A stretch of DNA of 64,000 nt from an uncultured Actinomycetes bacterium (lineage in GTDB: Bacteria > Actinomycetota > Thermoleophilia > Gaiellales > Gaiellaceae). A model generated the notes under the pieces. The model ran no database searches. It was not told the DNA's origin and saw only the letters and a program-made list of their open reading frames with translations. The stretch is taken from positions 177,654 through 241,653 of the forward strand of contig CAWCCJ010000007.1 in the NCBI GenBank assembly GCA_963794045.1. Direction: 5' to 3'. The first letter of the stretch is position 1, and every line of letters starts with the position of its first letter. This document shows, in pieces, positions 1 to 42,793 of the stretch. The translations under genes were made by a program, and so were the position numbers.

Positions 1-170
1 ACGAAGCACCCGTGTCGACGGAGCTGATCTATCGCAACATGGAGCAGCACAAGACCGGCTACGCCGCCGCCGTCCTACGGGTCGTCGAACGGCTCGAGGC
101 CTACGAGCGCGACGAGGACGCCGGTCGGGCAACTGTCCCTCGCGAGATCCTCGACCACTACGGGCCATGA
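1..170 (+). CDS. 3' end of an upstream ORF (partial; function unknown)
   Basis: The open frame ...EILDHYGP ends in TGA at 168-170. This stop overlaps the next gene's ATG (167) as ATGA, which suggests the same operon. Confidence 0.4.
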   Translation, partial: EAPVSTELIYRNMEQHKTGYAAAVLRVVERLEAYERDEDAGRATVPREILDHYGP

Positions 171-16628: not shown

Positions 16629-17546
16629 CTAATCCGCCGCCTCACGCTGCAGTCGCCGGAAGAGCGTCGCGTTGAGCGCAGCAGCCGTGACGATGACGTG
16701 TCCGAGAACGAACAGGCTGAAGAGAATCGCCGCCGCCGCGCCGAGTGTTCCGTACGTCGTCGCCCTGGCCGCGTGAATGCGCCCAAGCGCATACAGGTTG
16801 AAGAGATTCACCCCGACGATTCCCACTCCGTACACGAGCGCGCCGGGAGCAAGCCCGGTCCAGCGCGCGTCCGCGTGCGACAGGCCTAGTGAGATCCGAA
16901 GCCACACGAGCGCCGAAGCCGCTCCGTACAAGACGAGCGCCGGCGCCCCCCAACTGTCGGTGTGCGCGCGTACGGCCCCCGCAACGATCGTCAACGCGAG
17001 CTGCATCGCAACGCCGAGTGCGAACCGCCGCACCGCGCGCGGACTGACTTTCGCCGCAGCCGCCGATCGCTCCCACGCGAGGGCATGAACGATGGCGACA
17101 GCGCGGTAGAGGACGGACGTCGCATAGCCCAGAACGAGGAGCGAACCCAGCGCGACCCAGATTCCGGATCCTCGCTCTGCCGTCGCTGCGACCTCTGACG
17201 TGACGAGCCCGACGAAGCCCACGTCCTTGGCGATCTCGTGCGGCGACGAGCCGAACCACCTCACGGCGATACCGAGTGCCGCAACGAGCAGGACGGTGAG
17301 CGGCAGGAAGAAGACGAAGAGGCGATACGCCAAAGCACCCGCAAGAAGGCCGCTTCCGAGCTCTCTCTCGTACTCGATCTCGTCGATCAGCAGGTCGAGC
17401 AACGGGACCCGCGACCGCGTCGTCTCGAGGCGTGCCCGCATCGAGCCGAGGCGGAGCGCGGCACTCCTCGACTTCGCCACGATCCTGCTAGGCCGGTGCG
17501 GCTCGCGAGACGCCGCAGCAGCGGCCGTCGACCGCAGCCGGACCAT
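16629..17546 (-). CDS. YihY/BrkB family membrane protein
   Basis: GALAYRLFVFFLPLTVLLV signature and six TM helices. Confidence 0.8.
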   Translation of the reverse strand: MVRLRSTAAAAASREPHRPSRIVAKSRSAALRLGSMRARLETTRSRVPLLDLLIDEIEYERELGSGLLAGALAYRLFVFFLPLTVLLVAALGIAVRWFGSSPHEIAKDVGFVGLVTSEVAATAERGSGIWVALGSLLVLGYATSVLYRAVAIVHALAWERSAAAAKVSPRAVRRFALGVAMQLALTIVAGAVRAHTDSWGAPALVLYGAASALVWLRISLGLSHADARWTGLAPGALVYGVGIVGVNLFNLYALGRIHAARATTYGTLGAAAAILFSLFVLGHVIVTAAALNATLFRRLQREAAD

Positions 17547-17592
17547 GTCTGTCGCCCTTGATCAGCACTGCCGTGCGGACGGTATGGAGTGC

Positions 17593-17633
17593 CGCTCAGC
17601 ACGCGGTTCGAAGCGAATCAAGATTCCGTCAAG
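17593..17633 (-). promoter_or_regulatory. CTTGAC-N5-CTTGAT-N17-TGAGCG element facing the YihY-family gene
   Basis: Read on the minus strand, the tandem hexamers start 11 bp apart, and a TGA hexamer lies 17 nt after the TTGATT. Confidence 0.5.
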
Positions 17634-17650
17634 GTGGCCGTCCGTCGAGG

Positions 17651-17691
17651 CTTGACGCAACCTTGACGCCCGTCAGAGATGGTTGTGACGC
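17651..17691 (+). promoter_or_regulatory. CTTGAC-N5-CTTGAC-N17-TGACGC element facing the M20 peptidase-glsA genes
   Basis: GGCTTGACGCAACCTTGACGCC...TGACGC. It sits back to back with the 17593-17633 element. Confidence 0.5.
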
Positions 17692-17768
17692 TCGATCCGT
17701 AGCGTTTGATGCTGCTGCCCGATGCGGCATGGTCCGACAACGCTGGGACGAGACGGAAAGGATCCACG

Positions 17769-19154
17769 TTGACCGACACGCAGACATCACCTGCCTTCCC
17801 GGACGCGCCCGCAGCGGGTCGCGTTCGCTCGCTGATGCCGCAGCTCAAAGCCGATCTCGCGAGGCTGATCGCGATCCCGTCCGTCTCCGCTCCGAACTAC
17901 CCGGAGGCCACGCACACGCCGCTGCACGAAGCGTACGAAGCGGTAGCGGAGCTCTTCAGAGACACGGGAGTCACCATCCTCGACCCACTCGTCCTACCCG
18001 GGACGGCCCCGGTCCTCATGGGGGAGATCCCCGCCCCTCCCGGAAGGCCGACGGTGCTCCTCTACAGCCACTACGACGTCGTGCCGCCCGGAGACGAGTC
18101 GAAGTGGGAGTCGCCGCCGTTCGAGGCGGCCGAACGCGACGGAGCGATCTACGGCCGGGGATCGGCGGACACGAAGTCGAACATCCTGATGCACGTGGGA
18201 GCGCTGCGCGCGTGGGACGGCGCACCACCGGTGGGCATCAAGGTCGTGATCGAAGGAATGGAGGAAGTCGGGAGCGCGTTCAGCACCTTCCCGCCGGCGA
18301 GGCCCCAGCTCTTTGCCGCAGACGCAATGGTCATCGGCGACATGGGCAGCTTCCGTCCCGGGATACCGACGCTCACGGTCGCGTTGCGCGGTATGGCGAT
18401 GCTCACCGTCGAGGTGCGCACGCTCGCGGGACCGAAGCACAGCGGTCAGTTCGGAGGCGCCGCGCCGGATGCGCTACTCACTTTGCTTCGTGCGCTGGCG
18501 ACGCTTCATGACGACAACGGTGACGTGGCCGTCGCCGGGCTTCGGCGAGAGGAGTGGACGGGAGCCTCGTACAGCGACGACGAGTTCCGAGAGCTTGCGG
18601 AAGTTGCAGCTGGGGTCCCGCTCGTCGGTACCGGCGGGCTCGGCGAGCGCATCTGGACGGGACCGGCGATCACGGTGACGGGAATCGATGCGCTCCCGGT
18701 CGATCACGCCCTGAACGCAGTCGCCGCATACGCGCGGGCGAAAGTCAGCCTGCGCGTGCATCCGGAGCAGGATCCGCGCGAGGCCCAGGCGGCACTCGTC
18801 ACACACCTCGAGAAGCTGCGTCCGTACGGCGTGGACTTGACGGTCCACCCGGCGGAGACCGGGCAGGGATTCGCGGCGACCACCTCGGGACCTGCGTACG
18901 CCGCAGCGCGTGACGCGCTCGCAAGCGCCTGGCGCAGGGAGACGGTCACCTTCGCCTCGGGCGGATCGATCCCGCTCGTCAGCGCGCTTCAGCAGGCCGC
19001 ACCGGAAGCGGAGATGCTCCTGCTCGGGACGACCGACGGGTTCGCCAACATCCACGCGCCGAACGAGCGGGTCGTTCTCGACGAGTTCGAGAAGGCAACG
19101 CTTGCAGAGGCTGACTTCTTCGGCCGCTTCGCGGCGAGCGGCGGCGCCGGCTAA
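17769..19154 (+). CDS. M20 family dipeptidase / amidohydrolase
   Basis: HYDVVPPGDESKWESPPFE and GRGSADTKSN motifs. The TTG at 17769 follows a GGAAAGGA Shine-Dalgarno sequence. The ORF-track ATG at 17706 is the alternative start. Confidence 0.85.
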   Translation: MTDTQTSPAFPDAPAAGRVRSLMPQLKADLARLIAIPSVSAPNYPEATHTPLHEAYEAVAELFRDTGVTILDPLVLPGTAPVLMGEIPAPPGRPTVLLYSHYDVVPPGDESKWESPPFEAAERDGAIYGRGSADTKSNILMHVGALRAWDGAPPVGIKVVIEGMEEVGSAFSTFPPARPQLFAADAMVIGDMGSFRPGIPTLTVALRGMAMLTVEVRTLAGPKHSGQFGGAAPDALLTLLRALATLHDDNGDVAVAGLRREEWTGASYSDDEFRELAEVAAGVPLVGTGGLGERIWTGPAITVTGIDALPVDHALNAVAAYARAKVSLRVHPEQDPREAQAALVTHLEKLRPYGVDLTVHPAETGQGFAATTSGPAYAAARDALASAWRRETVTFASGGSIPLVSALQQAAPEAEMLLLGTTDGFANIHAPNERVVLDEFEKATLAEADFFGRFAASGGAG

Positions 19155-19163
19155 CCGCTGACT

Positions 19164-20147
19164 GTGAACGATCGTTTCGTCTCGACGGGCGACCTCCCTT
19201 CGCCGGATCTCGTTGCGCAACTGATCGCCGAGGCACACGATCGCTTCCGGGATGACACGTCCGGGGAGCGCTCGAGGACGTACCCGGCGTTGGCTCGCGC
19301 GTCGCCTGATCTTTTCGGCCTGTGCATCGCGGGAACTGACGGGCGCGTCATGTCGGCAGGTGACGACAGGATCGAGTTCTCGATGATGAGCGTCACCAAG
19401 CCGTTCGTCTTCGCACTCGTTTGCAACCGCCTTGGGGCGGAGGAGGTTCGGCGCCGCGTCGGAGTCAATCCGACCGGCCTGCCGTTCAACTCGATCCAAG
19501 CGCTCGAGCAGAGCGGCGACGGGAGGACCAACCCGATGGTGAATCCCGGCGCGATCGCGACGACGAGCCTCGCACCGGGAAGGACACCGACCGAGCAGTG
19601 GCAGTTCATCCACGACGGCCTCTCTCGGTTCGCCGGGCGGCCGCTCGCGATCGACGAGGAAGTCTTTGCGTCGGCGAGTGCGACGAACCAGCGCAACCAG
19701 GGGATCGCCCGTCTCCTCGTGGACGCCGGCCGCCTCTACACGGATCCGGACGCGGCCGTCGACCTCTATACGCGGCAGTGCTCGCTCACCGTGGACGTAA
19801 AAGACTTGGCCGTGATGGGGGCGACGCTCGCCGACGGGGGCACGAACCCCGTCACCGGCGTGCAGGTCATCGACCCGGTCAGCTGCCGCTACGCGCTCGC
19901 CGTCATGGCGAGCGCCGGTCTCTACGACACCTCCGGCGACTGGCTGTACGACGTCGGGCTGCCCGGCAAGAGCGGCATCAGCGGAGGCATCGTCACCGTC
20001 TCGCCGGGAAAAGGGAGCCTCGGCACGTTCGCGCCGTTGCTCGATCCTTCCGGCAACAGCGTCAAGGGGCAGCTGGCGGCGAGATTCCTCGCACGCCGGC
20101 TCGGGCTCGATCTCTTCGCGTCGGCGCCGTACGCACCGGCGGGCTGA
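19164..20147 (+). CDS. glsA: glutaminase A
   Basis: SVTKPF (catalytic Ser-x-x-Lys), NPMVNPGAI and LPGKSGISGG motifs of the glutaminase family. Confidence 0.9.
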   Translation: MNDRFVSTGDLPSPDLVAQLIAEAHDRFRDDTSGERSRTYPALARASPDLFGLCIAGTDGRVMSAGDDRIEFSMMSVTKPFVFALVCNRLGAEEVRRRVGVNPTGLPFNSIQALEQSGDGRTNPMVNPGAIATTSLAPGRTPTEQWQFIHDGLSRFAGRPLAIDEEVFASASATNQRNQGIARLLVDAGRLYTDPDAAVDLYTRQCSLTVDVKDLAVMGATLADGGTNPVTGVQVIDPVSCRYALAVMASAGLYDTSGDWLYDVGLPGKSGISGGIVTVSPGKGSLGTFAPLLDPSGNSVKGQLAARFLARRLGLDLFASAPYAPAG

Positions 20148-21062
20148 TCACGGGGCGCTCGACGCCTCCGCCGGGAGGTGGTTCCCCGCCGCCTCGGCGC
20201 CTTCCGGAAGAACGACGACAGGGACGGTCGCGGACGTGACGAGCGACTCCGAGACGGAGCCGAGGACGGCGGCGTGCACCGCGCCGATACCCCGGCCTGC
20301 GACGACGATCGCCCTGCCACCCTCACGCTCGGCAACCGAGATCAGGACCTCCGCCGGAACCCCCGGCTCGACGTGAACGGACACCGGCCGGTCCCCGACC
20401 ACCTCGAGAGCGGCGTCGAGGATCTCGCGCGTCAGCCGATCCAGCGCGTCGGGCTGCACGCTGAGTGACGGCGTGGTCGATCGCCCGAGGTACCGCACGA
20501 ACGACTTCGCCGAGCGCGGCGCATGCACCAAGGCCACGCGGCAGTCAAGGGTCCCCGCGAGATCCGCCGCCGTCCCGACTGCTGCGAGCGCATGCGCGGA
20601 GCCGTCCACCCCGCACACGATCGCCGGGTCAGGCCGTCCGGGTGTTCCCGTCAAAGCCGACGCGCCGCGGCGAACGATCACGAGCGGGCAGACCGCCTCC
20701 TGCACCAGCTTCCGCGGGACGCTCCCGAAGATCCCTGCGCCGAAGGACCTCGTGCCCTGAGCACCGACGACGAGCCACGCTCCGCGCTCGGTTCGCGCAA
20801 GCTCGAGGATGCGGTCGGCCGGAGACCCTTCGACCACATGGATCTCGGCAGACCGGTCCGCCTCCGTCCGCAGCCGGATCGCCGCCAGCACATCCTCCGC
20901 CTCCGCGACCGGCTCGTCGAACGCGTGCACCACGAGCAGCCGCGCACCGTAGGCCGCCGCGAGCTGCTGTGCGTTCTCGAGCACGAACGGCAGAGACTCG
21001 ATCGTGTCGACCCCGCAGATCACCGGTCCCGTCTTCTCCGAGCGAACGGCGGCGGCGTTCAT
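20148..21062 (-). CDS. universal stress protein (tandem Usp domains)
   Basis: ATG at 21062 (MNAAAV). Two repeats end in ..GSV..LV....CPLVIV / ..GSVSESLVTSATVPVVVL. Confidence 0.85.
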   Translation of the reverse strand: MNAAAVRSEKTGPVICGVDTIESLPFVLENAQQLAAAYGARLLVVHAFDEPVAEAEDVLAAIRLRTEADRSAEIHVVEGSPADRILELARTERGAWLVVGAQGTRSFGAGIFGSVPRKLVQEAVCPLVIVRRGASALTGTPGRPDPAIVCGVDGSAHALAAVGTAADLAGTLDCRVALVHAPRSAKSFVRYLGRSTTPSLSVQPDALDRLTREILDAALEVVGDRPVSVHVEPGVPAEVLISVAEREGGRAIVVAGRGIGAVHAAVLGSVSESLVTSATVPVVVLPEGAEAAGNHLPAEASSAP

Positions 21063-21064
21063 CG

Positions 21065-21661
21065 CTACGCAGCAGCCGTCGGCTCGGAATTGAACTCGCG
21101 GAGGTCGAACGCGAACCAGATCGCGGCGATCCCGCGGCCGAGCGCCGCGAATCCGACCCACACGACGAGCAGAATCGACCGACGGCCGAAGTCCCCCGCC
21201 GCCCAGAACCCAACACCTACCTGCAACAAGCCGAGGACGAAGAGGGGTGCCCAGGAGTCCTTCTCGTGCCGGGAGACGATCGCCTCGATCATCTCTCCTA
21301 CACCGATGACCACGAAGTAGAAGCTCATGACCGCGGCGAGGGCGGCGAAGGTGTGTCCGATCTGGAAGAACGCGACGACCCCGATGATGATGCACAGGGT
21401 CGCGAGAAGTAGGCGCCCGCCCGTGATCCAGCGGCTCCGAGCTCCTCCAAACGCGGTAATCGCTTCGCCGATACCGGCGACGAGCGCGAAGACCCCGAAG
21501 AGGATCGAGATCGACGACACGCTGCGCCAGTCGAAGCGGAGGATGGTGATCGCGAAGATGATCCACGCGATGCCGATGACGAGGAAGACCCACCAGAGGC
21601 GAGCCGCACCGGCGAACGAATCTGCGGCCTCCGCGTCGGTCGTAGCGATCGTCGTCGTCAT
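21065..21661 (-). CDS. HdeD/DUF308 family membrane protein
   Basis: Six TM helices with repeated G..L(I/V)..G(I/V)..I(I/V) DUF308-type segments. The gene ends 2 nt upstream of the Usp start. Confidence 0.75.
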   Translation of the reverse strand: MTTTIATTDAEAADSFAGAARLWWVFLVIGIAWIIFAITILRFDWRSVSSISILFGVFALVAGIGEAITAFGGARSRWITGGRLLLATLCIIIGVVAFFQIGHTFAALAAVMSFYFVVIGVGEMIEAIVSRHEKDSWAPLFVLGLLQVGVGFWAAGDFGRRSILLVVWVGFAALGRGIAAIWFAFDLREFNSEPTAAA

Positions 21662-21747
21662 CCGTCGACGCTCCTTCCCGTTAGAGGATCACTTCGAGTG
21701 CCCGCTGCGCGCGCCTTCGTCGGGCGTCGAATGACCGTAAGGCCGCG

Positions 21748-21788
21748 TACTCAGTTCGCGATCAGGGCTGACTCAAGCTTGCGTCAAG
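21748..21788 (-). promoter_or_regulatory. CTTGAC-N5-CTTGAG-N17-TGAGTA element facing the hdeD-usp genes
   Basis: Minus strand GGCTTGACGCAAGCTTGAGTC...TGAGTA, almost identical to the 17651 copy over the first 17 nt. Confidence 0.5.
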
Positions 21789-21802
21789 CCTCTTCGCGCT
21801 GA

Positions 21803-21843
21803 CTTGACCGAACCTTGATCGAGCGTGGAGGCCTGCCTGATCC
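21803..21843 (+). promoter_or_regulatory. CTTGAC-N5-CTTGAT-N17-TGATCC element facing the AbgT-SLC13 genes
   Basis: GACTTGACCGAACCTTGATCG...TGATCC, with the same geometry. Confidence 0.5.
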
Positions 21844-21917
21844 TCCAGCCATAGCGTCCCGAACCGAGCCGTCACGGGTGACGGGCCGGAACGCGAGCCT
21901 GGAGGGAGGAGACTCCG

Positions 21918-23600
21918 ATGAGCACGTCCACGGGCGCTGCGCCCGACGTCACCGGCCCGGAAGCGGACCATACGTTCATAGAGCGTCTGCTCGACAAGGT
22001 CGAGCGGGTCGGCAACAAGATGCCGCACCCGGCGATCCTCTTCGTCTGGCTCTGCGTTGGAGTCATCGTCCTCTCGCAGATCCTCGCGTTCGCCAACGTG
22101 AAGGCGACGTTCGAGGTCGTCAAACCGCCGCCGGTTCCGGCCGAGCAGGTCGAGTACGCCGGGTCGACGCAGAGCGTGGACGTTGCGTCGGCCGAGCCCG
22201 TGCCGCCGCAGGCGTACCACATGGTGACGGAGACGGCGAAGGTCAAAGGGTTACTGACCGGCGACGGAGTCACGTACCTCTTCACGTCGTTCGTCGCGAA
22301 TTTCCGCAACTTCGCCGCCGTGGCGATCATTCTGATCGTCATGATCGGCGTCGGCCTCGCAGAGGCGACCGGCCTGATCGCGGCGCTGATCCGAAAGCTC
22401 GTCGGCGTCTCGTCGCGAGGAACGCTGACGTTCATCATCGTGCTCCTGGGCGTCATCTCGAGCGTTGCGTCCGACGCCGGGTATCTCGTGCTGATCCCAC
22501 TGGGGGCTGCGGCGTTCAAGAGCGTCGGCCGAAACCCACTTGCGGGCATTGCCGCCGCGTTCGCCGGTGTTGCCGCCGGCTTCGGTGTGAACTTTCTGAT
22601 CACGCCGTTGGACGGCGTGCTGACCGAGATCACAAACGACGCGGCAGGAAACGACCGGAGCCAGCACATCGATCTCGCCGCGAACCTCTATTTCGGGATT
22701 GCTTCCACCGTCTTCGTCGCGATCATCCTCACGTTCGTAACGGCCAAGCTGGTCGAGAACCGCCTCGGCGACTACGACCCCGCGGATGCCGGCCCCGGTC
22801 CGCAGACGGCCGAGGAGACGCCCGAGGTCGAGCCCGCGGCGGAGGCCCGGGGTCTCCGCTACGCACTGTGGGGGACGCTTGTGACCGTCGGAGTAATTGC
22901 GCTTCTGACGGTGATCCCGGGCGCTCCGCTGCGGAACCCAGACACCGGAAAGGTGATCGGCGACTCGCCGTTCATGGACAGCCTGATCGTGATCATCACG
23001 ATCATCTTCTACGTCGCGGGCTACCTGTACGGGCGCGGCGCGGGGACGCTCAAGGGGAGCAAGGACGTCATCGCCACGATCGAGAAGTCGTGGGCGAGCC
23101 TCGCGAGTCTCCTGCTGCTCTTCCTGTTGATCGCGCAGTTCATCGCGTACTTCAACTTCAGCAACATCGCGGAGGTCGTCGCGGTGAAACTCGGCGACGT
23201 GCTCGAGCGAATGAATATCGGAGCCGTGTGGCTGCTCATCGGGTTCGTCATCGTGACGATCATCGTCGATCTGATCATCCCCGCAGCGATCGCGAAATGG
23301 GCGCTGCTCGCGCCCATCTTCATCCCGCTGTTCATCCGTCTCGGGGTCGCGCCGCAGACCGTGCTCGCCGCGTATCGCGTCGGCGACTCTCCTGTAAACG
23401 TGATCACACCGCTCATGGCGTACTTTCCGCTGATCGTCGTGTTCACGAAGCGCTACAAGCGCGACGCGGGTATCGGCACCGTCGTCTCGCTGATGCTCCC
23501 GTACGTCGCCATCCTGTCGATTACCTGGACGCTCTTCTTCGTCGCCTGGTACTTGATCGGGATTCCGCTCGGCCCAGGCTCGCCTGTGCACGTGCCCTGA
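21918..23600 (+). CDS. AbgT family (aminobenzoyl-glutamate/dipeptide-type) transporter
   Basis: The N-terminus FIERLLDKVERVGNKMPHPAILF is the AbgT signature. It is polytopic and preceded by a GGAGGAG Shine-Dalgarno sequence. Confidence 0.85.
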   Translation: MSTSTGAAPDVTGPEADHTFIERLLDKVERVGNKMPHPAILFVWLCVGVIVLSQILAFANVKATFEVVKPPPVPAEQVEYAGSTQSVDVASAEPVPPQAYHMVTETAKVKGLLTGDGVTYLFTSFVANFRNFAAVAIILIVMIGVGLAEATGLIAALIRKLVGVSSRGTLTFIIVLLGVISSVASDAGYLVLIPLGAAAFKSVGRNPLAGIAAAFAGVAAGFGVNFLITPLDGVLTEITNDAAGNDRSQHIDLAANLYFGIASTVFVAIILTFVTAKLVENRLGDYDPADAGPGPQTAEETPEVEPAAEARGLRYALWGTLVTVGVIALLTVIPGAPLRNPDTGKVIGDSPFMDSLIVIITIIFYVAGYLYGRGAGTLKGSKDVIATIEKSWASLASLLLLFLLIAQFIAYFNFSNIAEVVAVKLGDVLERMNIGAVWLLIGFVIVTIIVDLIIPAAIAKWALLAPIFIPLFIRLGVAPQTVLAAYRVGDSPVNVITPLMAYFPLIVVFTKRYKRDAGIGTVVSLMLPYVAILSITWTLFFVAWYLIGIPLGPGSPVHVP

Positions 23601-23634
23601 CGCAATCGCGTGACCTCGATCGAGGCCTGGAGAG

Positions 23635-25200
23635 ATGAGCGACTCGACGATCACGTTCCTCGTCCTGGGCATCGTCGTTGTCGTCTTCGCCCTCGACAAG
23701 CTGCCGATTGCGGTCGTGGCGATGGGGACGGCGCTCTCGCTCTGGGCAACGGGCGTCCTCGATCTGCAGCAGGCGCTCGGAGGCTTCGGCGACCCGACCG
23801 TCATCTTCATCGCCTCGCTCTTCGTTGTCAGCGAGGGTCTCGAAGCCTCTGGCGTCACGGCGTGGCTGGGTCAGCAGCTCGTCGCACGGGTGGGGGAGAG
23901 CAGGAAGCGGCTGATCGTCCTGACGATGGTGCTCGTGGCGGCGCTCACGGCGCTGATCAACGTGAACGGCGCGGTAGCGGCGCTCGTCCCGGTGGCCGCG
24001 GTCACGGCCATCCGCGTCGGCCGGTCGCCCGCGCAGCTGTTGATGCCGCTCGCCTTCGGAGCGCATGCGGGATCGCTCTTAGCGCTGACGGGAACGCCGG
24101 TGAACGTGATCGTGTCGGAGGCGGCGCAAGATGCCGGAGCAGGCCCGTTCGGATTCTTCTCGTTCGCGCTCGTCGGCATCCCGTTGCTCGCGGGCTCGAT
24201 CGCAATCGTCGTGTTCTTCGGTGGGCGGCTGCTTCCCGACCGTCGCGTGCGGAGGAGCACACCGAACTTCGCGATGCACGCGCGAACACTCGTCGCTCAA
24301 TACGACCTCGACCACGACCCGACGACGCTCCTGACGCGCCGGGCCGGCGTTGCCGAGATCGTCATTCCCCCGCGTTCGGAGCTCATCGGCGAGCGCGCAT
24401 TTCCCGGGATGGTGAGCGACCGGGGCGATCTCGTCGTCCTCGCGGTTCAGCGGCACGGCGACGATCAGAACGGCGGCGAGACGATGCTCGCCGGCGGCGA
24501 CACCCTGCTCCTGCAAGGCCCATGGGCTGCGCTCGAAGACCGGCTCGACGAGCCGGATGTCATCGCCGTCGACGAGCCGGCTCTCGTTCGCCGTCAAGCG
24601 GTCCCACTCGGGTTGGGAGCGTGGGAAGCGATTGCGCTGCTCGCGCTCATGGTCATCTTGCTCGCGACCGGCGCTGTGCCTGCGGTCGTCGCGGGTCTGC
24701 TGGCGGCAGGCGGGATGGTGATTGTCCGTGTTCTCTCGATCGACGAGGCGTACAACGGGATCTCGTGGACGACGGTGATTCTCGTCGCCGGGATGATTCC
24801 GCTCTCGACTGCGATGACCGAGTCGGGAGCGGCCAAGACCCTTGCGGACGGCCTCGTTCGCATCGTGGGGGACGCAGGCCCTCACCTTCTCCTCCTCGGC
24901 CTGTTCGTGCTCACCGCGGCGCTCGGGCAGCTGATCAGCAACATGGCGACTGCGCTGATTGTCATCCCGATCGCGCTCTCGGCGGCTTCCGACCTCTCGG
25001 TCTCGCCCCGTCCCGTACTGATGTGCGTCGCGGTTGCCGCAGCGGCGTCCTTTCTGACGCCCGTCGCGACGCCCGCGAATCTCATGGTCATGGGGCCGGC
25101 CGGATACCGCTTCGGCGACTACTGGAAGCTCGGCCTGCCGCTGCTCGCATTGTTCGGCGTCGTCAGCGTCCTGCTCGTGCCAGTCTTCTGGCCCTTCTGA
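23635..25200 (+). CDS. SLC13/DASS family permease with central TrkA-C domains
   Basis: The N- and C-terminal halves are polytopic. The central soluble segments (IVIPPRSELIGE...GDTLLLQG) resemble TrkA-C. Confidence 0.8.
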   Translation: MSDSTITFLVLGIVVVVFALDKLPIAVVAMGTALSLWATGVLDLQQALGGFGDPTVIFIASLFVVSEGLEASGVTAWLGQQLVARVGESRKRLIVLTMVLVAALTALINVNGAVAALVPVAAVTAIRVGRSPAQLLMPLAFGAHAGSLLALTGTPVNVIVSEAAQDAGAGPFGFFSFALVGIPLLAGSIAIVVFFGGRLLPDRRVRRSTPNFAMHARTLVAQYDLDHDPTTLLTRRAGVAEIVIPPRSELIGERAFPGMVSDRGDLVVLAVQRHGDDQNGGETMLAGGDTLLLQGPWAALEDRLDEPDVIAVDEPALVRRQAVPLGLGAWEAIALLALMVILLATGAVPAVVAGLLAAGGMVIVRVLSIDEAYNGISWTTVILVAGMIPLSTAMTESGAAKTLADGLVRIVGDAGPHLLLLGLFVLTAALGQLISNMATALIVIPIALSAASDLSVSPRPVLMCVAVAAAASFLTPVATPANLMVMGPAGYRFGDYWKLGLPLLALFGVVSVLLVPVFWPF

Positions 25201-25209
25201 TCTCTTGTA

Positions 25210-25884
25210 ATGGGCGGAGCGATCGGAGACGTGGTGCCGCTGGCCGTCGCGGTCGCCATCTTCCCGGTTCCGATCATCGCTGTCGTGCTGGTGCTCGGGT
25301 CGGCGCAGGGAACGAGGAAGGGCCTCGCATTCGTCCTCGCCTGGTCGATCGGCCTCGGGGCCGTTGGCGCTCTCGTCCTCCTCTTCTCCGGGAGTTTCGA
25401 GCCTCGCGAGGCGGGCGCTCCTGCGACGTGGCTGAACATCGTGCTCCTCGCACTTGGAGTGCTTCTCCTCGCCCTGGCCGTCAAGCAGTGGCGCAATCGT
25501 CCGCGTCCCGGTGACGAGCCCTCCATGCCGGGTTGGATGCGCTCGATCGACGCCTTGACGATTGCGAAGGCAGGAGCAACAGGCTTTGCGCTGACCGCGC
25601 TGAATCCGAAGAACGCGCTGCTCACAGTGGCGGCGGCGTTGGAGATCGCCGGGCGAGACCTTCCGCCGACTCAGCAGGCGGCAGTGCTCATCGGCTTCGT
25701 TCTGATCGGGTCGATCGGAGTCCTCGCGCCGCTCGTGCTCACGCTGCTGCTCGGCGACCGGTCGCACGACCTGCTCGAACGGCTGCGCGACTGGATGACG
25801 CGTTACAACGCGATTGTCATGGCGATGCTTTTCCTCGTCATCGGCGCGAAGCTGATCGGCGACTCGATCACGGGCTTCTCCTAG
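25210..25884 (+). CDS. GAP/DUF2910 (Sap-like) family membrane protein
   Basis: Six TM helices with an N-terminal IGDVVPLAVAVAIFPVPIIAVVL segment. The family call rests on recollection only. Confidence 0.6.
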   Translation: MGGAIGDVVPLAVAVAIFPVPIIAVVLVLGSAQGTRKGLAFVLAWSIGLGAVGALVLLFSGSFEPREAGAPATWLNIVLLALGVLLLALAVKQWRNRPRPGDEPSMPGWMRSIDALTIAKAGATGFALTALNPKNALLTVAAALEIAGRDLPPTQQAAVLIGFVLIGSIGVLAPLVLTLLLGDRSHDLLERLRDWMTRYNAIVMAMLFLVIGAKLIGDSITGFS

Positions 25885-25905
25885 GCATACCGCGACTCGC
25901 AGAAA

Positions 25906-26439
25906 TCAGTGAAACTCGTGCTTGAGCAGCACGAGCCCTGTGGCGAGCGCCACCAGGAATGCCGCCGCCGCCACGCTTCGCGCACCCGAGAGCCCGGCCC
26001 GGCGGTTTGCCGCGAAAGCGTAGGCACCGATGACGGTTACACCCGCGGCCTTCGCAGCGGTGAATCCTGCATCGAGCCCGATCGCGCCGAACACGCCAAG
26101 CATGAGAAGAAGGATCGGCGGGATCACTGCCACGAGCGATCCCAGGGCCAGAGCGATCGCCGACTGCAGTTCGGGCCAGGTCGGACGACGGCCCGTGCCG
26201 ATCATCGTTCCGAGGTAATCGGCGTACGCCTCGGCCAGCAGGACTGCCAACAGGGCGCCGAAGATCGTGGAAACGATGTCCGCGTCGGAGCGCTTTCCCT
26301 CGAGGGCGAGGATCACGGCGAGGACGATGATCTCCGCGTAGATCCCGTGCGTGGCCTGCTTCTCGCCGAACTGGGCCGTGAGCCACTGCCGCACAGGCTG
26401 CACGGACGGCGATTGCCCTGCCCCGAAGTCACGGGCCAT
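25906..26439 (-). CDS. hypothetical membrane protein
   Basis: Four or five TM helices with codon usage like its neighbours. No family was recognised. Confidence 0.55.
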   Translation of the reverse strand: MARDFGAGQSPSVQPVRQWLTAQFGEKQATHGIYAEIIVLAVILALEGKRSDADIVSTIFGALLAVLLAEAYADYLGTMIGTGRRPTWPELQSAIALALGSLVAVIPPILLLMLGVFGAIGLDAGFTAAKAAGVTVIGAYAFAANRRAGLSGARSVAAAAFLVALATGLVLLKHEFH

Positions 26440-27107
26440 TGCAGCAAGGATGCGGCACGCGTCGGTTGACGCGATCGCATTCCACGATGACTCCTGAACC
26501 GGCCCGGATGCGCGACACTTCGGCGATGCCCTCAGCGCTGGAAGCCATGGCAGCGAACCTCGAGCAGGCCCTCGAACACGTGAGCGTGCCGAGTTATGTC
26601 ATCGACCCTGCCGGTGTCGTCAGGTGGATGAACGCCGCTGCCATGCACCTCGTGGGCAACCAGACCGGGCGGCAGTTCACGGCGGTGGTCGCACCTGAGG
26701 ATACGCGCCGCGCTCGTGAGGTCTTCGCACGGAAGGTGGTGGGTAACACAAAGGTCACGGATGCGAGTTTCGTCGTCCTCGACTCGACGGGTGAATACGT
26801 CTCGGTCGAGATCAGTTCGGTACCGTTGCACCGCGGCGAGCATCTGATCGGCGTCTTCGGGCAGGTGTCCGACGTGCAGGAAGAGCCGGTCCCTCATCCG
26901 GAGTTGCGGCTGACCCCGAGGCAGGCCGAGGTCCTGCGTCTGCTCGAGTACGGCCGCACGACGACGCAGATCGCGGAGGAGCTGCACCTCAGTCGCGAGA
27001 CCGTTCGGAATCACGTGCGTCACCTCCTGCACGCGGTCGGCGCCTCGTCGCGCCTGGAAGCGGTCGCCCTCGCCCGCGGCGATCTGCCCGCTCTCCGCCG
27101 TACTTGA
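26439..27107 (+). CDS. PAS-domain LuxR-family transcriptional regulator
   Basis: A PAS-like core (SYVIDPAGVVRWMNAAA...) plus a C-terminal LuxR HTH (LTPRQAEVLRLLEYGRTTTQIAEELHLSRETVRNHV). The start is uncertain, with alternatives at 26487 and 26508. Confidence 0.75.
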   Translation: MQQGCGTRRLTRSHSTMTPEPARMRDTSAMPSALEAMAANLEQALEHVSVPSYVIDPAGVVRWMNAAAMHLVGNQTGRQFTAVVAPEDTRRAREVFARKVVGNTKVTDASFVVLDSTGEYVSVEISSVPLHRGEHLIGVFGQVSDVQEEPVPHPELRLTPRQAEVLRLLEYGRTTTQIAEELHLSRETVRNHVRHLLHAVGASSRLEAVALARGDLPALRRT

Positions 27108-27120
27108 CGCATCTGCGTCA
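27105..27120. promoter_or_regulatory. palindrome TGACGCA-N2-TGCGTCA
   Basis: Perfect 7-bp arms that start in the stop codon of the PAS-LuxR gene. The 2-nt spacer is too short for a terminator loop, so it is more likely a protein-binding site. Confidence 0.35.
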
Positions 27121-27188
27121 GCAAGGCCGCGATCCGCGGCGGCCACGATGGCGGTATAGAGAGTCTCGATCTCGATCTCGACCACGTC

Positions 27189-27467
27189 GTGATGTTCGAA
27201 TTGCCGGCGTTCGAGGACGTGGAAGCGTTCTGTGACCGGTTCCGGCCACGCTGGGAAGGATGGTCGCACGCCGACGAGCATGTCTGGCTCTTCGCCGTCC
27301 GCCTCAGAACCGCCGGCGACAACGTTGCGTGCCTGCTTCGAGAATCCCAAGAGCTGCTTGCCGAGCTCGGTCTGGCGAGCGTCCGATTTTGCCTCGACGG
27401 CAGAAGGTACGCCCTCGACGCAGCGCACACGTCTGGCGCTTGCGCGTCGACCTTGACCGAAGCTTGA
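27189..27467 (+). CDS. small hypothetical protein
   Basis: A 92-aa ORF with protein-like composition (MMFELPAFEDVEAFCDRFRPRWEGW...). No family was recognised. Confidence 0.35.
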   Translation: MMFELPAFEDVEAFCDRFRPRWEGWSHADEHVWLFAVRLRTAGDNVACLLRESQELLAELGLASVRFCLDGRRYALDAAHTSGACASTLTEA

Positions 27468-27492
27468 CGCATCGCCGACGGCCGCATGACCT
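27452..27492 (+). promoter_or_regulatory. CTTGAC-N5-CTTGAC-N17-TGACCT element facing the DUF1269-like-usp genes
   Basis: ACCTTGACCGAAGCTTGACGC...TGACCT, 40 nt upstream of the 27532 start. Confidence 0.5.
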
Positions 27493-27531
27493 GAGCGTCC
27501 TAGGGTCGCGGGCAAGGAGGCCATCGGTCGA

Positions 27532-28080
27532 TTGGACGTGTACGAGCTCGCACCGACGTACCCCGCGCCGCGCCAGATGCTTCTGGGCGTCTTCCAGTCA
27601 GCGGGGCGTGCCGAGGCAATCTGCAGCCTGCTTCGCGAGTCAGCACGTCAGCGACTGATCCGCGTCATCAGTCTGACGCAGATCAAGCGTGACGCGCGCG
27701 GCCGGCTCGAACTGCTCGAGGCGCGAAGCGGTCACCGTGGGGGTCGTGAGGTCGCGGGCTCCCTGCCGGCGATCTTTCGCATGCTCCTCGGGCCGAGTGA
27801 TCGCGTCTCCGTGAGCGCTCGCCTCTCCTCATTGGCCGACGCTCTCGAGCCTGACACATCGGCGATCGCTGCGCTCATCGAGCACAGCTGGGTCGACGAC
27901 GTCCGCGCGCTGATGGAGGAGGCCGGCGCCGAGGCGGTGACCGACGCGGTGCGGGCGGAGATCGCCGACGCGATGGCGTCGGGGCGGGACCTGGTGTTCA
28001 CGGCCGGGGCGACGGAGTGGGGTTCAGCGCCGCTGGAGCGCCTTATGCGAGGCGAGGCAAGCGGAGTGAAACGGGGATGA
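27532..28080 (+). CDS. DUF1269/DUF6325-like hypothetical protein
   Basis: AAGGAGG Shine-Dalgarno sequence upstream. The pattern ..IRVISL..IKRDARG.. and ..SAIAALIEHSWV..V...MEEAGA matches this family, and a paralog lies at 54925-55410. Confidence 0.6.
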   Translation: MDVYELAPTYPAPRQMLLGVFQSAGRAEAICSLLRESARQRLIRVISLTQIKRDARGRLELLEARSGHRGGREVAGSLPAIFRMLLGPSDRVSVSARLSSLADALEPDTSAIAALIEHSWVDDVRALMEEAGAEAVTDAVRAEIADAMASGRDLVFTAGATEWGSAPLERLMRGEASGVKRG

Positions 28081-28107
28081 CGAGATGACTGCCGCCGGCG
28101 CCTCGCT

Positions 28108-28950
28108 ATGAGGGACGCCGGAGTGATCCTCTGCGGCGTCGCCGATAGCGACACGGCCGGGCCGGTAATCGCCCTCGGCCGCCGCTTTGCCGTCGCCTAC
28201 GGCGCGCAGATCAGCGTCGTCCATGCATTCGACGAGCTTGCTGCCGACGCCGAGCAGACGATGGAATCGATCCGGGCCGACACCGCATCCGACGGGTGGA
28301 TCGAGATCCGGCTGGTCGAGGGGCCATCCGCCGACTGCCTGATCGAGATCGCAGAGAGCGAGCGGGCGGAGTGGATCGTCGTCGGCTCCCGCTCGCGCAG
28401 CACGAGCTCCGGAGCCGTTGGGAACGTTCTCCCGCAACTCGCGCGGAGAGCGCCGTGTCCGGTGGTCGTCGTACCACTCGCCGTCGGCAACGGAGTCTCC
28501 AGCCGTCTCGCCGGCCCGGCGTCGATCGTCTGCGGGATCGATGGGTCCGAGCATGCCCTCGCAGCCGCGAGACTCGCCGGTGAGGTCGGCAGTTGCTTCG
28601 GCCTGCGCGTGCTTCTCGTGCACGCGCTGACATCCTCGCCCACAGTCTCGGACGCTGTGGCACCCGACACCGAGCGAATCATGGCGCGGGCGACGGAGGC
28701 GGTGACGAATCCAGGAACCGAGGTGATCGTCGAGCGGGGGCGGCAAGATCACGTGCTCGCGGCGATCGCAGAGCGCGAGAACGCAAGGCTGATCGCGATT
28801 GCAGCCCACGGAACGAGCCGGCTCGAGGCCGCGCACATCGGCTCGGTCGCGAGCTTGCTCACCGCGTCGTCGCCAGTCCCTCTCATCCTCGTGTCGCAAC
28901 GGGCAGAGAGGAGGATCGTCGATCGGCGGACTGCTCCTTCAGCGCACTAG
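28108..28950 (+). CDS. universal stress protein (tandem Usp domains)
   Basis: Two Usp repeats (..WIVVGSRSRS..GNV..QLARRAPCPVVVV / ..LIAIAAHGTS..GSVASLLTASSPVPLILV). Confidence 0.85.
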   Translation: MRDAGVILCGVADSDTAGPVIALGRRFAVAYGAQISVVHAFDELAADAEQTMESIRADTASDGWIEIRLVEGPSADCLIEIAESERAEWIVVGSRSRSTSSGAVGNVLPQLARRAPCPVVVVPLAVGNGVSSRLAGPASIVCGIDGSEHALAAARLAGEVGSCFGLRVLLVHALTSSPTVSDAVAPDTERIMARATEAVTNPGTEVIVERGRQDHVLAAIAERENARLIAIAAHGTSRLEAAHIGSVASLLTASSPVPLILVSQRAERRIVDRRTAPSAH

Positions 28951-30461
28951 GAAAGCGGACAGATCCAGCGAACGATCGTCCCCGCGCCAGGGCGCGCGCG
29001 AACGCGGATCGAGGCGCCGCTCGCCGCAGCTCGCTCGCGCATGTTCGCGAGCCCCTTCCCTTCGACAACCTCACCGGGGACGAAGCCCACGCCCGAGTCC
29101 TGAACAAGCGCAACGACCCGTCGACTCTCCCGCCGGAACCGGATTCGCGCCACTGCGTCGGGACCGGCATGTTTCGATGCGTTCTGCAACGCCTCGACGA
29201 CGACGTAGTAGAGACCATGCTCAGCTGCTTCGTCGAACCGTCCGGGATCCCCGTCGATTGCGATCTCGAGCCGAGCAGTCACGGCCACGTCGCGCACCGC
29301 CCCGGCGACGCCGGCTTTCGCGAGCAGGCTCGGGTACCTGCCGGAAACGATGTCACGGAGATCGGCCGAGGCCGACGAGAGCAGCGCCGACAGTTCTTCC
29401 AGGAGCACGTCGCCGCCGGCGGGATCGTCGGGCGGTGGGTCACGCATGAGCGCCGTCACGAGTTGTGCACCCAGAAGCTGGCGCTGGATCGAGTCGTGGA
29501 GATCCCGCTCCATGCGCTTGCGCTCGGCCACAACCGCCCGCGCGCGTGCTTCCTCACGCTCGTCCTCACGGGCAGCAGCGTCCGTCGCAGCGGCGGCGAC
29601 GTGTCGGCCGACAAGGCGTGCGTACTCGCGCTCGCTCTCGCCCGCCTTCCGGAGCGGGCTGAAGGCGAGAACCAGCACCGGCACTGCGTCCGGCAGCGCA
29701 TTCGTCGGAAGACGGATGCAGAGGACGGACGCATCGGCTCCGCCGTCGATGCGCGCTCTCGCAGCCACGGGCTCGTCGTGGATCTCAAGTGCCGCGGCGA
29801 CAGCCGGGTGGATCGGCCCAAGTGTCAGCGGCAATGGCGTTCCTCGACCGCACGATGCCACGCACGTCGACGTACCTCCACGCACGAGGTGAATCTCGGC
29901 GACTGCCACGTCATCGTCCTCGACGACGGTTGCGACTGCCGTTTCCAGTACTTCGTCGAGCGGCAGGTGCAAGAGTCGCTCATCGAGGGAGTTGAGACAC
30001 CTCAGCCGGCGTTCGCCGATGACCCGCCTCGTCGTCTCGGTGGAGACGAGCAGCACGCCCTCTGGTGTGCCACGGTCGCCGAAAATCGGGCTGTAGGACC
30101 AGGAGAAAAATGCCTCCTCGAGCCCCCGACCCCGGTCGAAGACGAGGGGCGCATCCTCGGACCACGTCGACTCGCCACGAGCGAGGACGGTCTCGAGCAC
30201 CGGCCCGACGACGTCCCAGATCTCGGCGAGGACGACCCGAGCCGGCTGACCGAGGGCCGCAGGGTGCATGTCGCCGAGCGGCTTTCGCTCCGCGTCGTTG
30301 TACAGGAGGATGAGCTCCGGCCCCCAGTAGATCGCGAGCTGAGAGGACGAGTGCAGGATCATCGTCAGCGCCTGCCACAGCGCCTCGGGCCACTCGTCCA
30401 ACGGCCCGAGTGCCGTCGTGCTCCAGTCTCGAGCCGCGATCAACTGCGCAGTCTCGCTCAT
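28947..30461 (-). CDS. sensor histidine kinase (PAS/GAF sensory region, HisKA_3, HATPase_c)
   Basis: H-box ERKRMERDLHDSIQRQLLG (HisKA_3 type), N-box EALQNASKHAG and G-box DSGVGF. The start is taken at ATG 30461, with in-frame alternatives at 30515 and 30602. Confidence 0.8.
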   Translation of the reverse strand: MSETAQLIAARDWSTTALGPLDEWPEALWQALTMILHSSSQLAIYWGPELILLYNDAERKPLGDMHPAALGQPARVVLAEIWDVVGPVLETVLARGESTWSEDAPLVFDRGRGLEEAFFSWSYSPIFGDRGTPEGVLLVSTETTRRVIGERRLRCLNSLDERLLHLPLDEVLETAVATVVEDDDVAVAEIHLVRGGTSTCVASCGRGTPLPLTLGPIHPAVAAALEIHDEPVAARARIDGGADASVLCIRLPTNALPDAVPVLVLAFSPLRKAGESEREYARLVGRHVAAAATDAAAREDEREEARARAVVAERKRMERDLHDSIQRQLLGAQLVTALMRDPPPDDPAGGDVLLEELSALLSSASADLRDIVSGRYPSLLAKAGVAGAVRDVAVTARLEIAIDGDPGRFDEAAEHGLYYVVVEALQNASKHAGPDAVARIRFRRESRRVVALVQDSGVGFVPGEVVEGKGLANMRERAAASGASIRVRARPGAGTIVRWICPLS

Positions 30462-30579
30462 GCCGAGCGGCGACCTCGAACGCTGCTTTCGCCGCAGGCT
30501 TGGCACCGACTCCATGGAAGGCCTCCTCGAAGCCACTATGCGCCTTCGCCCGAGGCTCCGCAATCGCGCGGGCGGACGT

Positions 30580-31293
30580 CTAGTCCGGTGGCGTTTCGAC
30601 AATCCGGAAGCCGAACCCTCGAACGGTGCGGATGAAGCGAGGCCTCTGCGGATCGTCGCCGAGCTTGCGGCGCAGGTTCGACATGTGGACGTCGATCACG
30701 TGGTCGTCGCCGAACCAACTCGGCCCCCACACCTGCTCTAGCAACTGCTGTCGGCTGAGCGTCAGCCGCGGATTCCGCGCGAGTGTCTCCAGCAGGCCGA
30801 ACTCCAGTCCGCTGAGTGTGACGGCCTCGCCGGCGACCCGGACTTCACGGCGTCCGGTATCGATCTCCAGGTCACCAAGTTGGAGGACGTTCGGCGTCGA
30901 GCCCAGATACCGCGGCCGTCGCAGCATTGCCTGGACCCGTGCCATGAGCTCTGCCGTCCGGACGGGCTGCGGCATGAAGTCGTCCGCGCCGACCGAGAGG
31001 CTGAGCACGGCGTCGAGCTCTGACCTGCGCTCGCCCACGGCGACGATGTAGGCATTCGTCGTCGAACGAAGTCTCCGGCAGATGTCGATCGGGTCCGCGG
31101 TCGGCGCAGCGACGTCGAGGACGATGACGTCCACCACCGGCGCGTTTGCCACCGCGTCCTCGGGGTCGACCTCGGACTCGACCGCGAACCCGTGATCTGC
31201 CAGAACCACCCGCATCGCGTCGTCGATCGCTTGCCCGTCGCCGACGAGAAGAGCACGGTGTGAGTAACCGGTGGCGGCGCCCGTATCGATCAC
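30580..31293 (-). CDS. OmpR/PhoB-family response regulator with atypical receiver domain
   Basis: Winged-helix C-terminus (LSGLEFGLLETLARNP..VHMSNLRRKL..IRTVRGFGFR). The receiver has GDG instead of DD and MPQP instead of TKP. The GTG 31293 start is inferred. Confidence 0.8.
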   Translation of the reverse strand: MIDTGAATGYSHRALLVGDGQAIDDAMRVVLADHGFAVESEVDPEDAVANAPVVDVIVLDVAAPTADPIDICRRLRSTTNAYIVAVGERRSELDAVLSLSVGADDFMPQPVRTAELMARVQAMLRRPRYLGSTPNVLQLGDLEIDTGRREVRVAGEAVTLSGLEFGLLETLARNPRLTLSRQQLLEQVWGPSWFGDDHVIDVHMSNLRRKLGDDPQRPRFIRTVRGFGFRIVETPPD

Positions 31294-31417
31294 GTAGCGC
31301 CGATGGTAGGCAGGCCTCCCGCGTCGGGCCAGGTGGCGCTCACCGGACACCACCCCGTACGTGCCTGGACGGGCAACACGTGCGTGCACCCCCATGCGGC
31401 GGCGTATCGTCTGTCAG

Positions 31418-34106: not shown

Positions 34107-34120
34107 TGTAAACGTTTACA
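34107..34120. promoter_or_regulatory. perfect 14-bp palindrome TGTAAACGTTTACA (LacI/cre-type operator)
   Basis: It fits the LacI-family consensus TGNAANCGNTTNCA. It lies 40 nt upstream of the GH6 start, and a LacI-family gene follows GH6. Confidence 0.6.
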
Positions 34121-34159
34121 CGCGGCTCTACCAGGGCCGCTCGACAAGGGGGTTCGCTG

Positions 34160-35467: not shown

Positions 35468-35475
35468 CCGCGAGA

Positions 35476-42660: not shown

Positions 42661-42793
42661 GGATCGAGCATGCACGCCCTTTTGCACGAGAAGACTCGTA
42701 GAAAACCCTGATCGTGGAGCAGGGAAAACCCAGATTTGGCCGGCGCCATTTCTTCCTACGTTCGTTGGAGAAAACCAGACGACCGGAGGAGCA

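Follow-up and report, generated by a model that had tools for sequence, protein, structure and literature searches.

In the Pho systems, represented by PhoB of E. coli and by PhoP of B. subtilis, Streptomyces and M. tuberculosis, direct repeats with an 11-bp period replace the −35 element of the promoter, and the proximal repeat of a Pho box lies ∼10 bp upstream of the −10 element. The core sites of B. subtilis PhoP consist of four TT(A/T/C)ACA repeats that extend from about −60 to −20, and cyanobacterial SphR uses three copies of CTTAACCT. Our comparison with Pho boxes draws on this general background and on one published account (PMC11825685). GlnR, an orphan and phosphorylation-independent OmpR-type regulator, binds four 5-nt sites separated by 6 nt and arranged head to tail around the −35 element, of which only three are essential, and its complex contacts sigma region 4, the beta flap and the alpha subunits (PMC10235972). 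The afs box of the SARP AfsR is shorter, with two 11-bp repeats centred at −29.5 and the 3′ repeat 8 bp from the −10, in a mode termed ‘sigma adaptation’ (PMC10936776). Here we describe five promoters, units A to E, in a 64-kb window (the whole stretch of DNA that was analysed, 64,000 nucleotides of contig CAWCCJ010000007.1 from an uncultured actinobacterium), each of which carries four (C)TTGA(C) boxes, R1 to R4, upstream of a −10-like hexamer. Our reading, to which we give a probability of about 65%, is that the five sites are activator-dependent promoters of the housekeeping sigma factor whose boxes are bound by the atypical OmpR-family response regulator encoded at 30580–31353 of the window.

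The locus resembles GlnR control, in which an actinobacterial regulator of the atypical OmpR/PhoB type likewise acts through four short sites of 11-bp period, at promoters with a weak −35 and nitrogen-related targets. It differs from it in the box, which is gTnAc-n6-GaAAc for GlnR and CTTGAC here, in the protein, which is closer to RegX3 and MtrA and is not a GlnR orthologue, and in the gene context, where no glnA, amtB or nas was seen among the window targets and the regulator is probably co-operonic with a HisKA_3 kinase; with neither orthologue nor box, the window falls outside the GlnR regulon. The Pho systems share the 11-bp direct repeats in place of the −35, and the repeat sequences of Pho boxes and SphR are close to TTGAC. 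In contrast to the Pho regulon, however, no pstS, phoA or phoD lies downstream of the window boxes, where BrkB, M20, glutaminase, AbgT, DUF308 and Usp genes are found, and the window regulator is not a PhoB/PhoP equivalog and has no working phospho-pocket. The R3–R4 pair, predicted to be centred near −28.5 with the R4 core ending 10 bp from the −10, recalls the SARP arrangement, but the window protein has a receiver and no BTAD domain (Pfam finds only Response_reg and Trans_reg_C, which sets it apart from the SARPs), there are four repeats rather than two, and the targets are stress and transport genes rather than antibiotic clusters. With the atypical response regulators JadR1 and GlnR the window protein shares a degenerate receiver pocket and an intact OmpR-type DNA-binding domain, whereas its clade descends from a canonical Thermoleophilia/Rubrobacteria subfamily of OmpR proteins, with a box and a regulon of its own.

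The five CTTGA-box promoters

The original prediction for this DNA had described five copies of two CTTGA hexamers followed by a TGA hexamer. All five were found where it had placed them and on the same strands, with the TGA exactly 17 nt past the second TTGAnn at 5/5 sites and with back-to-back pairs in two divergent intergenic regions. This pattern is real but incomplete. When the sites are aligned on R1, every unit consists of four head-to-tail (C)TTGA(C) repeats at exact 11-bp steps (5/5 window sites), the ‘TGAnnn’ hexamer is the core of R4, and a TAnnGT hexamer that had been overlooked begins 49 bp past the R1 start, which is 10 bp past the end of the R4 core, again at 5/5 sites (Table 1). 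The distal boxes R1 and R2 are near-perfect and the proximal boxes R3 and R4 are degenerate, keeping only a GA or TGA core. All five units are intergenic and each points at a gene.

Table 1. Coordinates of the promoter units, their presumed target genes and the regulatory genes of the window
Feature	Coordinates	Strand	Boxes and −10 hexamer	Remarks
Unit A	17578–17633	−	R1 17633–17628 CTTGAC; R2 17622–17617 CTTGAT; R3 17611–17606 TCGAAC; R4 17600–17595 GCTGAG; −10 17584–17579 TACCGT	before BrkB/YihY-like gene; 51.1 bits
Unit B	17651–17706	+	R1 17651–17656 CTTGAC; R2 17662–17667 CTTGAC; R3 17673–17678 TCAGAG; R4 17684–17689 TGTGAC; −10 17700–17705 TAGCGT	before M20 peptidase and glutaminase; 52.9 bits
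Unit C	21733–21788	−	R1 21788–21783; R2 21777–21772 CTTGAG; R3 21766–21761 CCTGAT; R4 21755–21750 ACTGAG; −10 21739–21734 TACGGT	before DUF308 (HdeD-like) and tandem Usp; 54.4 bits
Unit D	21803–21858	+	R1 21803–21808; R2 21814–21819 CTTGAT; R3 21825–21830 GTGGAG; R4 21836–21841 CCTGAT; −10 21852–21857 TAGCGT	before AbgT, CitMHS/DASS and SfLAP; 51.8 bits
Unit E	27452–27507	+	R1 27452–27457; R2 27463–27468 CTTGAC; R3 27474–27479 GCCGAC; R4 27485–27490 CATGAC; −10 27501–27506 TAGGGT	before DUF1269-like protein and tandem Usp; 55.2 bits
Common layout			R1 CTTGAC; R2 CTTGA(C/T/G); R3 nCnGAn (degenerate); R4 nnTGAs; −10 TACCGT/TAGCGT/TACGGT/TAGCGT/TAGGGT	offsets from R1 start: 0, +11, +22, +33, +49
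BrkB/YihY-like membrane protein	16629–17546	−		no Pfam match of its own; orthologues match PF03631
M20 amidohydrolase and glutaminase operon	17769–20147	+		M20 start taken at TTG 17769 after GGAAAGGA
Glutaminase	19164–20147	+		second gene of the M20 operon
DUF308/HdeD-like and tandem-Usp operon	20148–21661	−		DUF308 21065–21661; Usp 20148–21062
AbgT transporter, CitMHS/Na-sulfate-symporter-type (CitMHS/DASS) transporter and SfLAP membrane protein operon	21918–25884	+
DUF1269-like (182 aa, sub-threshold) and tandem-Usp operon	27532–28950	+		Usp 28108–28950
PAS-LuxR (GerE) one-component regulator	26439–27107	+		adjoins unit E; rival or accessory
PAS-HisKA_3 histidine kinase	28947–30602	−		just downstream of the atypical regulator, co-oriented
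Atypical OmpR-family response regulator	30580–31353	−		receiver and Trans_reg_C; candidate box binder
NarL/GerE-type response regulator, canonical	31361–32083	+		divergent from the atypical regulator
Bits are position weight matrix scores.

The frequency of the pattern was compared with that expected from composition, using 100 dinucleotide-preserving shuffles of the window on both strands as background. Exact matches to CTTGAN-N5-CTTGA number 5 in the window, where 0.01 would be expected, and none of the shuffles reached 5. Lone CTTGAC hexamers are not enriched (27 against 21.8 expected), so the non-random signal is the tandem arrangement. Allowing one mismatch added two matches, one at the third repeat of site C, in register, and one at 59224 that is unrelated. 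With a 56-column position weight matrix (PWM), the five sites score 51–55 bits, the next-best window position scores −7, and the maximum over 30 random Markov windows of 64 kb is 4.5 bits; the earlier statement that the tandem form is missing from the other inspected intergenic regions therefore holds. The same scan of the window returned no weaker sites before the regulator, kinase, NarL-type or PAS-LuxR genes.

Three other explanations of the repeated sequence were discarded. Beyond the motif columns, the five sites and their flanks are unlike each other in alignment and thus are not duplicated DNA. The gap between back-to-back units varies from 5 to 23 bp across loci, so each pair represents two independent units rather than a palindromic composite operator. 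A non-coding RNA was set aside because Rfam gives nothing at the sites and only five tRNAs in the window; the downstream DNA of 18 related loci with the motif gave no Rfam match either.

The hexamers at +49 fit the actinobacterial housekeeping −10 (TAnnnT). No −35-like hexamer lies 16–19 bp upstream of TAnnGT at the units, and ordinary sigma-70 promoters were rejected after a consensus scan found 0 −35/−10 pairs in 17400–28000. If transcription is assumed to start 7 nt past the −10, the boxes are predicted to begin at −61, −50, −39 and −28, with centres at about −59, −48, −37 and −26, and the predicted starts fall near 17572 (−), 17712 (+), 21727 (−), 21864 (+) and 27513 (+). The predicted 5′ leaders measure 19–66 nt and end at good ribosome-binding sites. 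The predicted leader of the AbgT operon also contains, between the −10 and the start codon, an imperfect hairpin (21857–21896; 19-nt arms, 74% complementary, 2-nt loop) with no Rfam match.

The atypical regulator and its relatives

The protein encoded at 30580–31353 is the only OmpR-type regulator in the window. In an alignment of the receiver pocket (alignment A1), the canonical VVDDE, MLTAR and TKPF motifs become LVGD(G), VAVGER and PQPV in the window protein and its orthologues: the acidic DD pocket is gone, the conserved Thr is replaced by Gly and the conserved Lys by Gln, and the phospho-acceptor Asp is kept. It is by this loss of conserved receiver residues that we class it as an atypical response regulator. 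In one orthologue (P0003, L045 6209–7021) a Glu replaces the phospho-acceptor Asp (IVLELSLP), which fits a receiver that does not rely on phosphorylation. For the window regulator no NCBIfam equivalog reached its cut-off (the PhoB profile scores 146 bits against a cut-off of 296), so that it could not be named. Among solved structures it is closest to RegX3 and MtrA (E 1e-39 to 1e-37), and the structures 8hig and 8hih, which are labelled only ‘OmpR family regulator’ and which we take to be GlnR, match far more weakly (1e-22 to 1e-19). The recognition helix is common to the window clade and the canonical subfamily (DDHVIDVHISNLRRKL versus DDHVVDVHIANLRKKL).

The atypical regulator and the HisKA_3 kinase form a probable operon. 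The NarL-type regulator, which probably starts near 31418 in reality, is likely the true partner of this kinase. The intergenic region between the NarL-type and atypical OmpR-type genes (window 31294–31420; L041 9891–10000; L042 6554–6677; L044 3729–3812) has conserved blocks, namely GATACG, GCACG...GGTG and a TAnnnT before the OmpR-type gene, and holds no CTTGA box; it is a candidate site of NarL control over the atypical regulator.

A protein search returned an orthologue group 54–70% identical to the window regulator with the same degenerate receiver, below which there is a step down to canonical paralogues of ∼50% identity labelled Thermoleophilaceae or Solirubrobacteraceae. In 8/8 contigs examined, the orthologue lies inside the same gene set (Usp and a small protein, M20-AbgT-CitMHS, glutaminase, BrkB and DUF308), often with the kinase and NarL regulator and sometimes with PAS-LuxR. 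The kinase is arranged as in the window in L041, L042, L044 and L168, and L042 and the P0013 contig also have PAS-LuxR. Neither a kinase nor a NarL regulator adjoins the atypical regulator in L045 and the P0009 contig, where the targets are present. The box grammar is found before orthologous genes in five related loci (L041, L042, L044, L045 and L034), often as back-to-back pairs, and the boxed genes are those for BrkB/YihY, M20-AbgT-CitMHS, glutaminase, DUF308 and DUF1269-like protein with Usp.

Conservation was measured over 21 sites from the window and these five loci, counting only columns that the search had not forced. The AA of the R1–R2 spacer is kept in 19/21 and 16/21 sites, the GA of R3 in 19/21 and 21/21, and the TGA of R4 in 15/21, 18/21 and 21/21. 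The T, A and final T of the TAnnnT hexamer are present in 20/21, 21/21 and 21/21 sites, with a C two bases ahead of it in 18/21. In the held-out loci L167 and L168, the latter with a back-to-back pair, sites score 36–42 bits. The earlier suggestion that 11-bp direct repeats mark a site of the OmpR/PhoB family is supported by four repeats at 11-bp steps at 5/5 window and 21/21 clade sites, and the sites have two features expected of such a box, phased direct repeats and a linked Trans_reg_C regulator. Beside this gene set, a baeRF (bacterial eRF1-like) gene follows BrkB or CitMHS in two contigs (L044 8713–9813; P0009 contig 8477–9604) and may be a further member of the regulon; a weak box-like match of 20.5 bits lies near it at L044 8679–8734.

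Public genomes (one per GTDB species, at least 40 loci, 8 kb examined per locus) and metagenomes (at least 120 loci, most on contigs of 1–5 kb) were also scanned with the DNA pattern alone. An OmpR-family regulator lies within 8 kb at 24 of the 40 GTDB loci listed, whereas only a few per cent of random 8-kb stretches would be expected to contain an OmpR-type gene; the regulators in Thermoleophilia, Rubrobacteraceae, Tessaracoccus and Ktedonobacterales are 42–49% identical to the window protein. Despite the short contigs, an OmpR-type homologue is present at 56 of the 120 metagenome loci listed. Since scans with the motif alone return homologous regulators in this way, the CTTGA box tracks this OmpR regulator subfamily. 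R4 is a full CTTGA, with the unforced bases CT before the TGA, at 25/40 of the GTDB loci listed, many metagenome promoters carry four full CTTGA repeats, and genes homologous to the same targets lie on eight short metagenome contigs (L059, L077, L081, L097, L115, L126, L128 and L143). The 30580 regulator, already proposed in the original prediction, is the best candidate for the box binder in view of the conserved neighbourhood, of the motif before orthologous targets and of these scans.

Proposed mechanism and its alternatives

Each promoter has a good −10 (TAnnGT) and no −35, with four (C)TTGA(C) boxes in its place. The 11-bp spacing puts all four boxes on one face of the helix, and we propose that the winged-helix domain of the 30580–31353 protein binds them as two tandem head-to-tail dimers, forming a tetramer. 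Binding would begin at the strong distal pair and spread cooperatively to the weak proximal pair, which is predicted to cover the −35/spacer region from about −39 to −18. From this position the bound protein would take the place of −35 recognition through contacts with sigma region 4 and the beta flap, the mode of activation used by PhoB, GlnR, M. tuberculosis PhoP and the SARP AfsR. Activator sites of this kind combine a proximal repeat 8–10 bp from the −10 with the lack of a functional −35, and given the predicted start positions the window units do the same. Because the receiver residues for phosphotransfer are lost, activity is probably set by the amount of the protein, by a ligand or by another modification, and the PAS-HisKA_3 kinase and the NarL-type regulator may control the regulator's transcription in a two-tier cascade. 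The output would be a small conserved regulon of BrkB/YihY, M20-glutaminase, AbgT-CitMHS-SfLAP, DUF308-Usp and DUF1269-like-Usp.

Several points weigh against this interpretation. The loci behind the neighbourhood argument were fetched through the regulator itself, as were all of the six related metagenomic loci in which the box grammar precedes orthologous genes, so that the constant adjacency of regulator and targets is partly circular, and the motif-first contigs from the window's own clade are too short to reveal a nearby regulator. The PWM places no box before the regulator's own gene, and autoregulation was not seen. The −10 was assigned, and every position relative to +1 derived, from sequence. 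Canonical paralogues, ∼50% identical and with the same recognition helix, seem to use the same box in related lineages, and one encoded elsewhere in the genome could be the true or an additional binder. Finally, boxes over the −35/spacer could repress instead of activate.

In another reading, a canonical, kinase-controlled OmpR paralogue with its gene outside the window binds the boxes, which would reduce the atypical regulator to a bystander or competitor. Such paralogues are common in Thermoleophilia and Solirubrobacterales and are tied to the same CTTGA-box grammar in related lineages, but it is the atypical clade that is embedded in the target cluster in every contig examined, there is no canonical OmpR-type gene in the 64-kb window, and the boxes of canonical systems drive other genes (SHOCT, ferric-reductase-like and copper proteins); we consider this explanation unlikely. 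Repression by the same protein at the same boxes, with a tetramer over the −35/spacer blocking RNA polymerase until a signal releases it, also seems rather improbable. The proximal boxes do overlap the region that polymerase must occupy, and atypical regulators such as JadR1 can repress; however, the lack of a −35 at usable spacing is typical of activator-dependent promoters, the base-pair-exact distance from box to −10 in nearly all sites is expected for a protein that contacts polymerase, and the geometry equals that of known activators.

A GerE/LuxR-type protein, either the NarL-type or the PAS-LuxR regulator, has a place among the candidates in that both genes belong to the cluster and are found again in several related loci, that the TTGAC core resembles a −35 hexamer and that sigma region 4 is a relative of the GerE helix-turn-helix domain. 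Inverted repeats are the typical target of GerE-type dimers, though, and the sites are direct repeats, four of them at 11-bp steps; boxes or targets occur together with an OmpR-type regulator in L045 and the P0009 contig, where no NarL, kinase or PAS-LuxR gene is adjacent; and among the 40 motif-derived GTDB loci listed, a GerE-type (LuxR-type) homologue at E<1e-6 occurs at 0, against 24 with an OmpR-type regulator, which makes this quite a poor prospect. The anatomy implied by the original prediction, in which the second TTGAnn would be a −35 and the TGAnnn 17 nt later the −10 of an unusual holoenzyme or alternative sigma factor, explains the exact spacing at 5/5 sites and the match of TTGAC to the −35 consensus, but we regard it as highly improbable. 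TGAnnn has a G in place of the near-invariant −10 adenine at position 2, so it cannot be a sigma-70-type −10, and it also has no T at position 6. Its T and G vary in relatives (15/21 and 18/21), it sits in the 11-bp register as a fourth repeat at a spot where many related promoters show a full CTTGA, and a canonical TAnnnT is conserved at a fixed distance, 11 nt further downstream, in 20–21 of 21 sites; R1 and the GA core of R3 would be left unexplained. Given a TAnnGT −10 of housekeeping type, rather than one of an alternative or extracytoplasmic-function sigma factor, together with four phased repeats, the suggestion of an alternative sigma factor is without support, and no sigma-factor gene was seen among the 35 open reading frames scanned in the window, the annotation of which is not exhaustive.

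Binding by the atypical OmpR-family regulator would place this system beside GlnR as a second natural case in which four phased sites of an atypical OmpR-type regulator replace the −35, and would suggest how a phosphorylation-dead regulator can nest inside a canonical two-component locus. The observation itself is real and well conserved, and its reading as an OmpR-family box is supported. It is a new example of a known design; because the design principle is textbook for the OmpR/PhoB family, the result mainly fills in the map and does not change it. The gain consists of a defined box, of a regulon set out for an unstudied lineage, of a clade of atypical regulators and of a cross-phylum box, and a limited search of open-access text returned nothing relevant on a regulator with a CTTGAC/CTTGA direct-repeat box. 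To our knowledge no regulator has been characterised in this uncultured soil actinobacterial clade, for which the boxes provide a testable cis-regulatory code and a five-operon regulon. The box can also serve as a search key, as the pattern-only scan recovered homologous regulators in several phyla. More tentatively, and with some doubt, the CTTGA box, with its four sites and fixed distance to the −10, might be the ancestral recognition code of an OmpR subfamily, as yet undescribed, that Actinomycetota (Rubrobacteria, Thermoleophilia), Chloroflexota, Spirochaetota and Bacillota share. The window clade would then be a phosphorylation-dead offshoot that retained this code and was rewired under PAS-HisKA_3/NarL as the second tier, controlling a glutaminase/Abg-like (M20 and AbgT)/HdeD-like/Usp regulon for acid or nitrogen stress in uncultured, Thermoleophilia-like soil bacteria.

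Target genes and other occurrences of the box

Gene identities were taken from Pfam. The content of the target operons (glutaminase, M20 with AbgT, DUF308/HdeD-like, Usp) plausibly fits an acid- or nitrogen-stress response, and the pairing of an M20 amidohydrolase with AbgT follows the logic of E. coli abgABT. A DosR/DevR-type regulon was considered given the Usp genes and the HisKA_3/NarL pair, and failed the box test: no palindromic GGGACnnnnGTCCC-type box lies near the Usp genes, and elsewhere there are 3 one-mismatch matches against 4.6 expected. The rest of the window encodes a radical-SAM/SPASM pair (2–3284), a GH6 cellulase with a LacI-type regulator (34112–36534) and a multicopper oxidase (42356–43954), none with a box, and the five tRNA genes (15032, 41936, 44036, 44180 and 61981) likewise have none.

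Outside the window clade, the CTTGA-box grammar adjoins canonical OmpR-type two-component regulators in Rubrobacteraceae, Thermoleophilia, Ktedonobacterales, Spirochaetaceae and Clostridia (in L001–L040 and L047–L166, e.g. L008 6967–7021, L033 3713–3767, L020 6688–6742 and L054 1002–1056). In these boxes R1 and R2 are joined by a full CTTGA that is frequent at R4 and occasional at R3, and the distance to a TAnnnT is fixed. Downstream of them are small SHOCT-domain membrane proteins (32 loci) and ferric-reductase-like membrane proteins (25), as well as multicopper oxidase, cupredoxin, Met/His-rich secreted proteins and DUF305, so that the CTTGA regulon of the canonical systems may concern metal or envelope stress.

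Some matches of the scans are of another kind. Tandem 11-bp arrays containing CTTGA (e.g. repeated CTTGACTAAAC or CTTGATATAAT; L011 4415–4701, L048, L095, L112 and L070), on low-GC or planctomycete contigs, are satellite-like, matched by construction and probably have no link to the regulator box. Streptomyces feoA/feoB promoters (L007 4006–4060; L040 7577–7631) carry CTTGACC-AA-CTTGAC followed by a conserved GGATGAAAAG...TTAGGCT; these matches are probably due to chance or unrelated, and may belong to some other regulator whose site is similar in its distal half. In two Pseudomonas species (L003 1851–1905; L024 1419–1473), a box whose R4 reads GTTGA precedes a MipA/OmpV-like outer-membrane protein gene, and in L024 an OmpR-type regulator lies ∼2 kb from the box.

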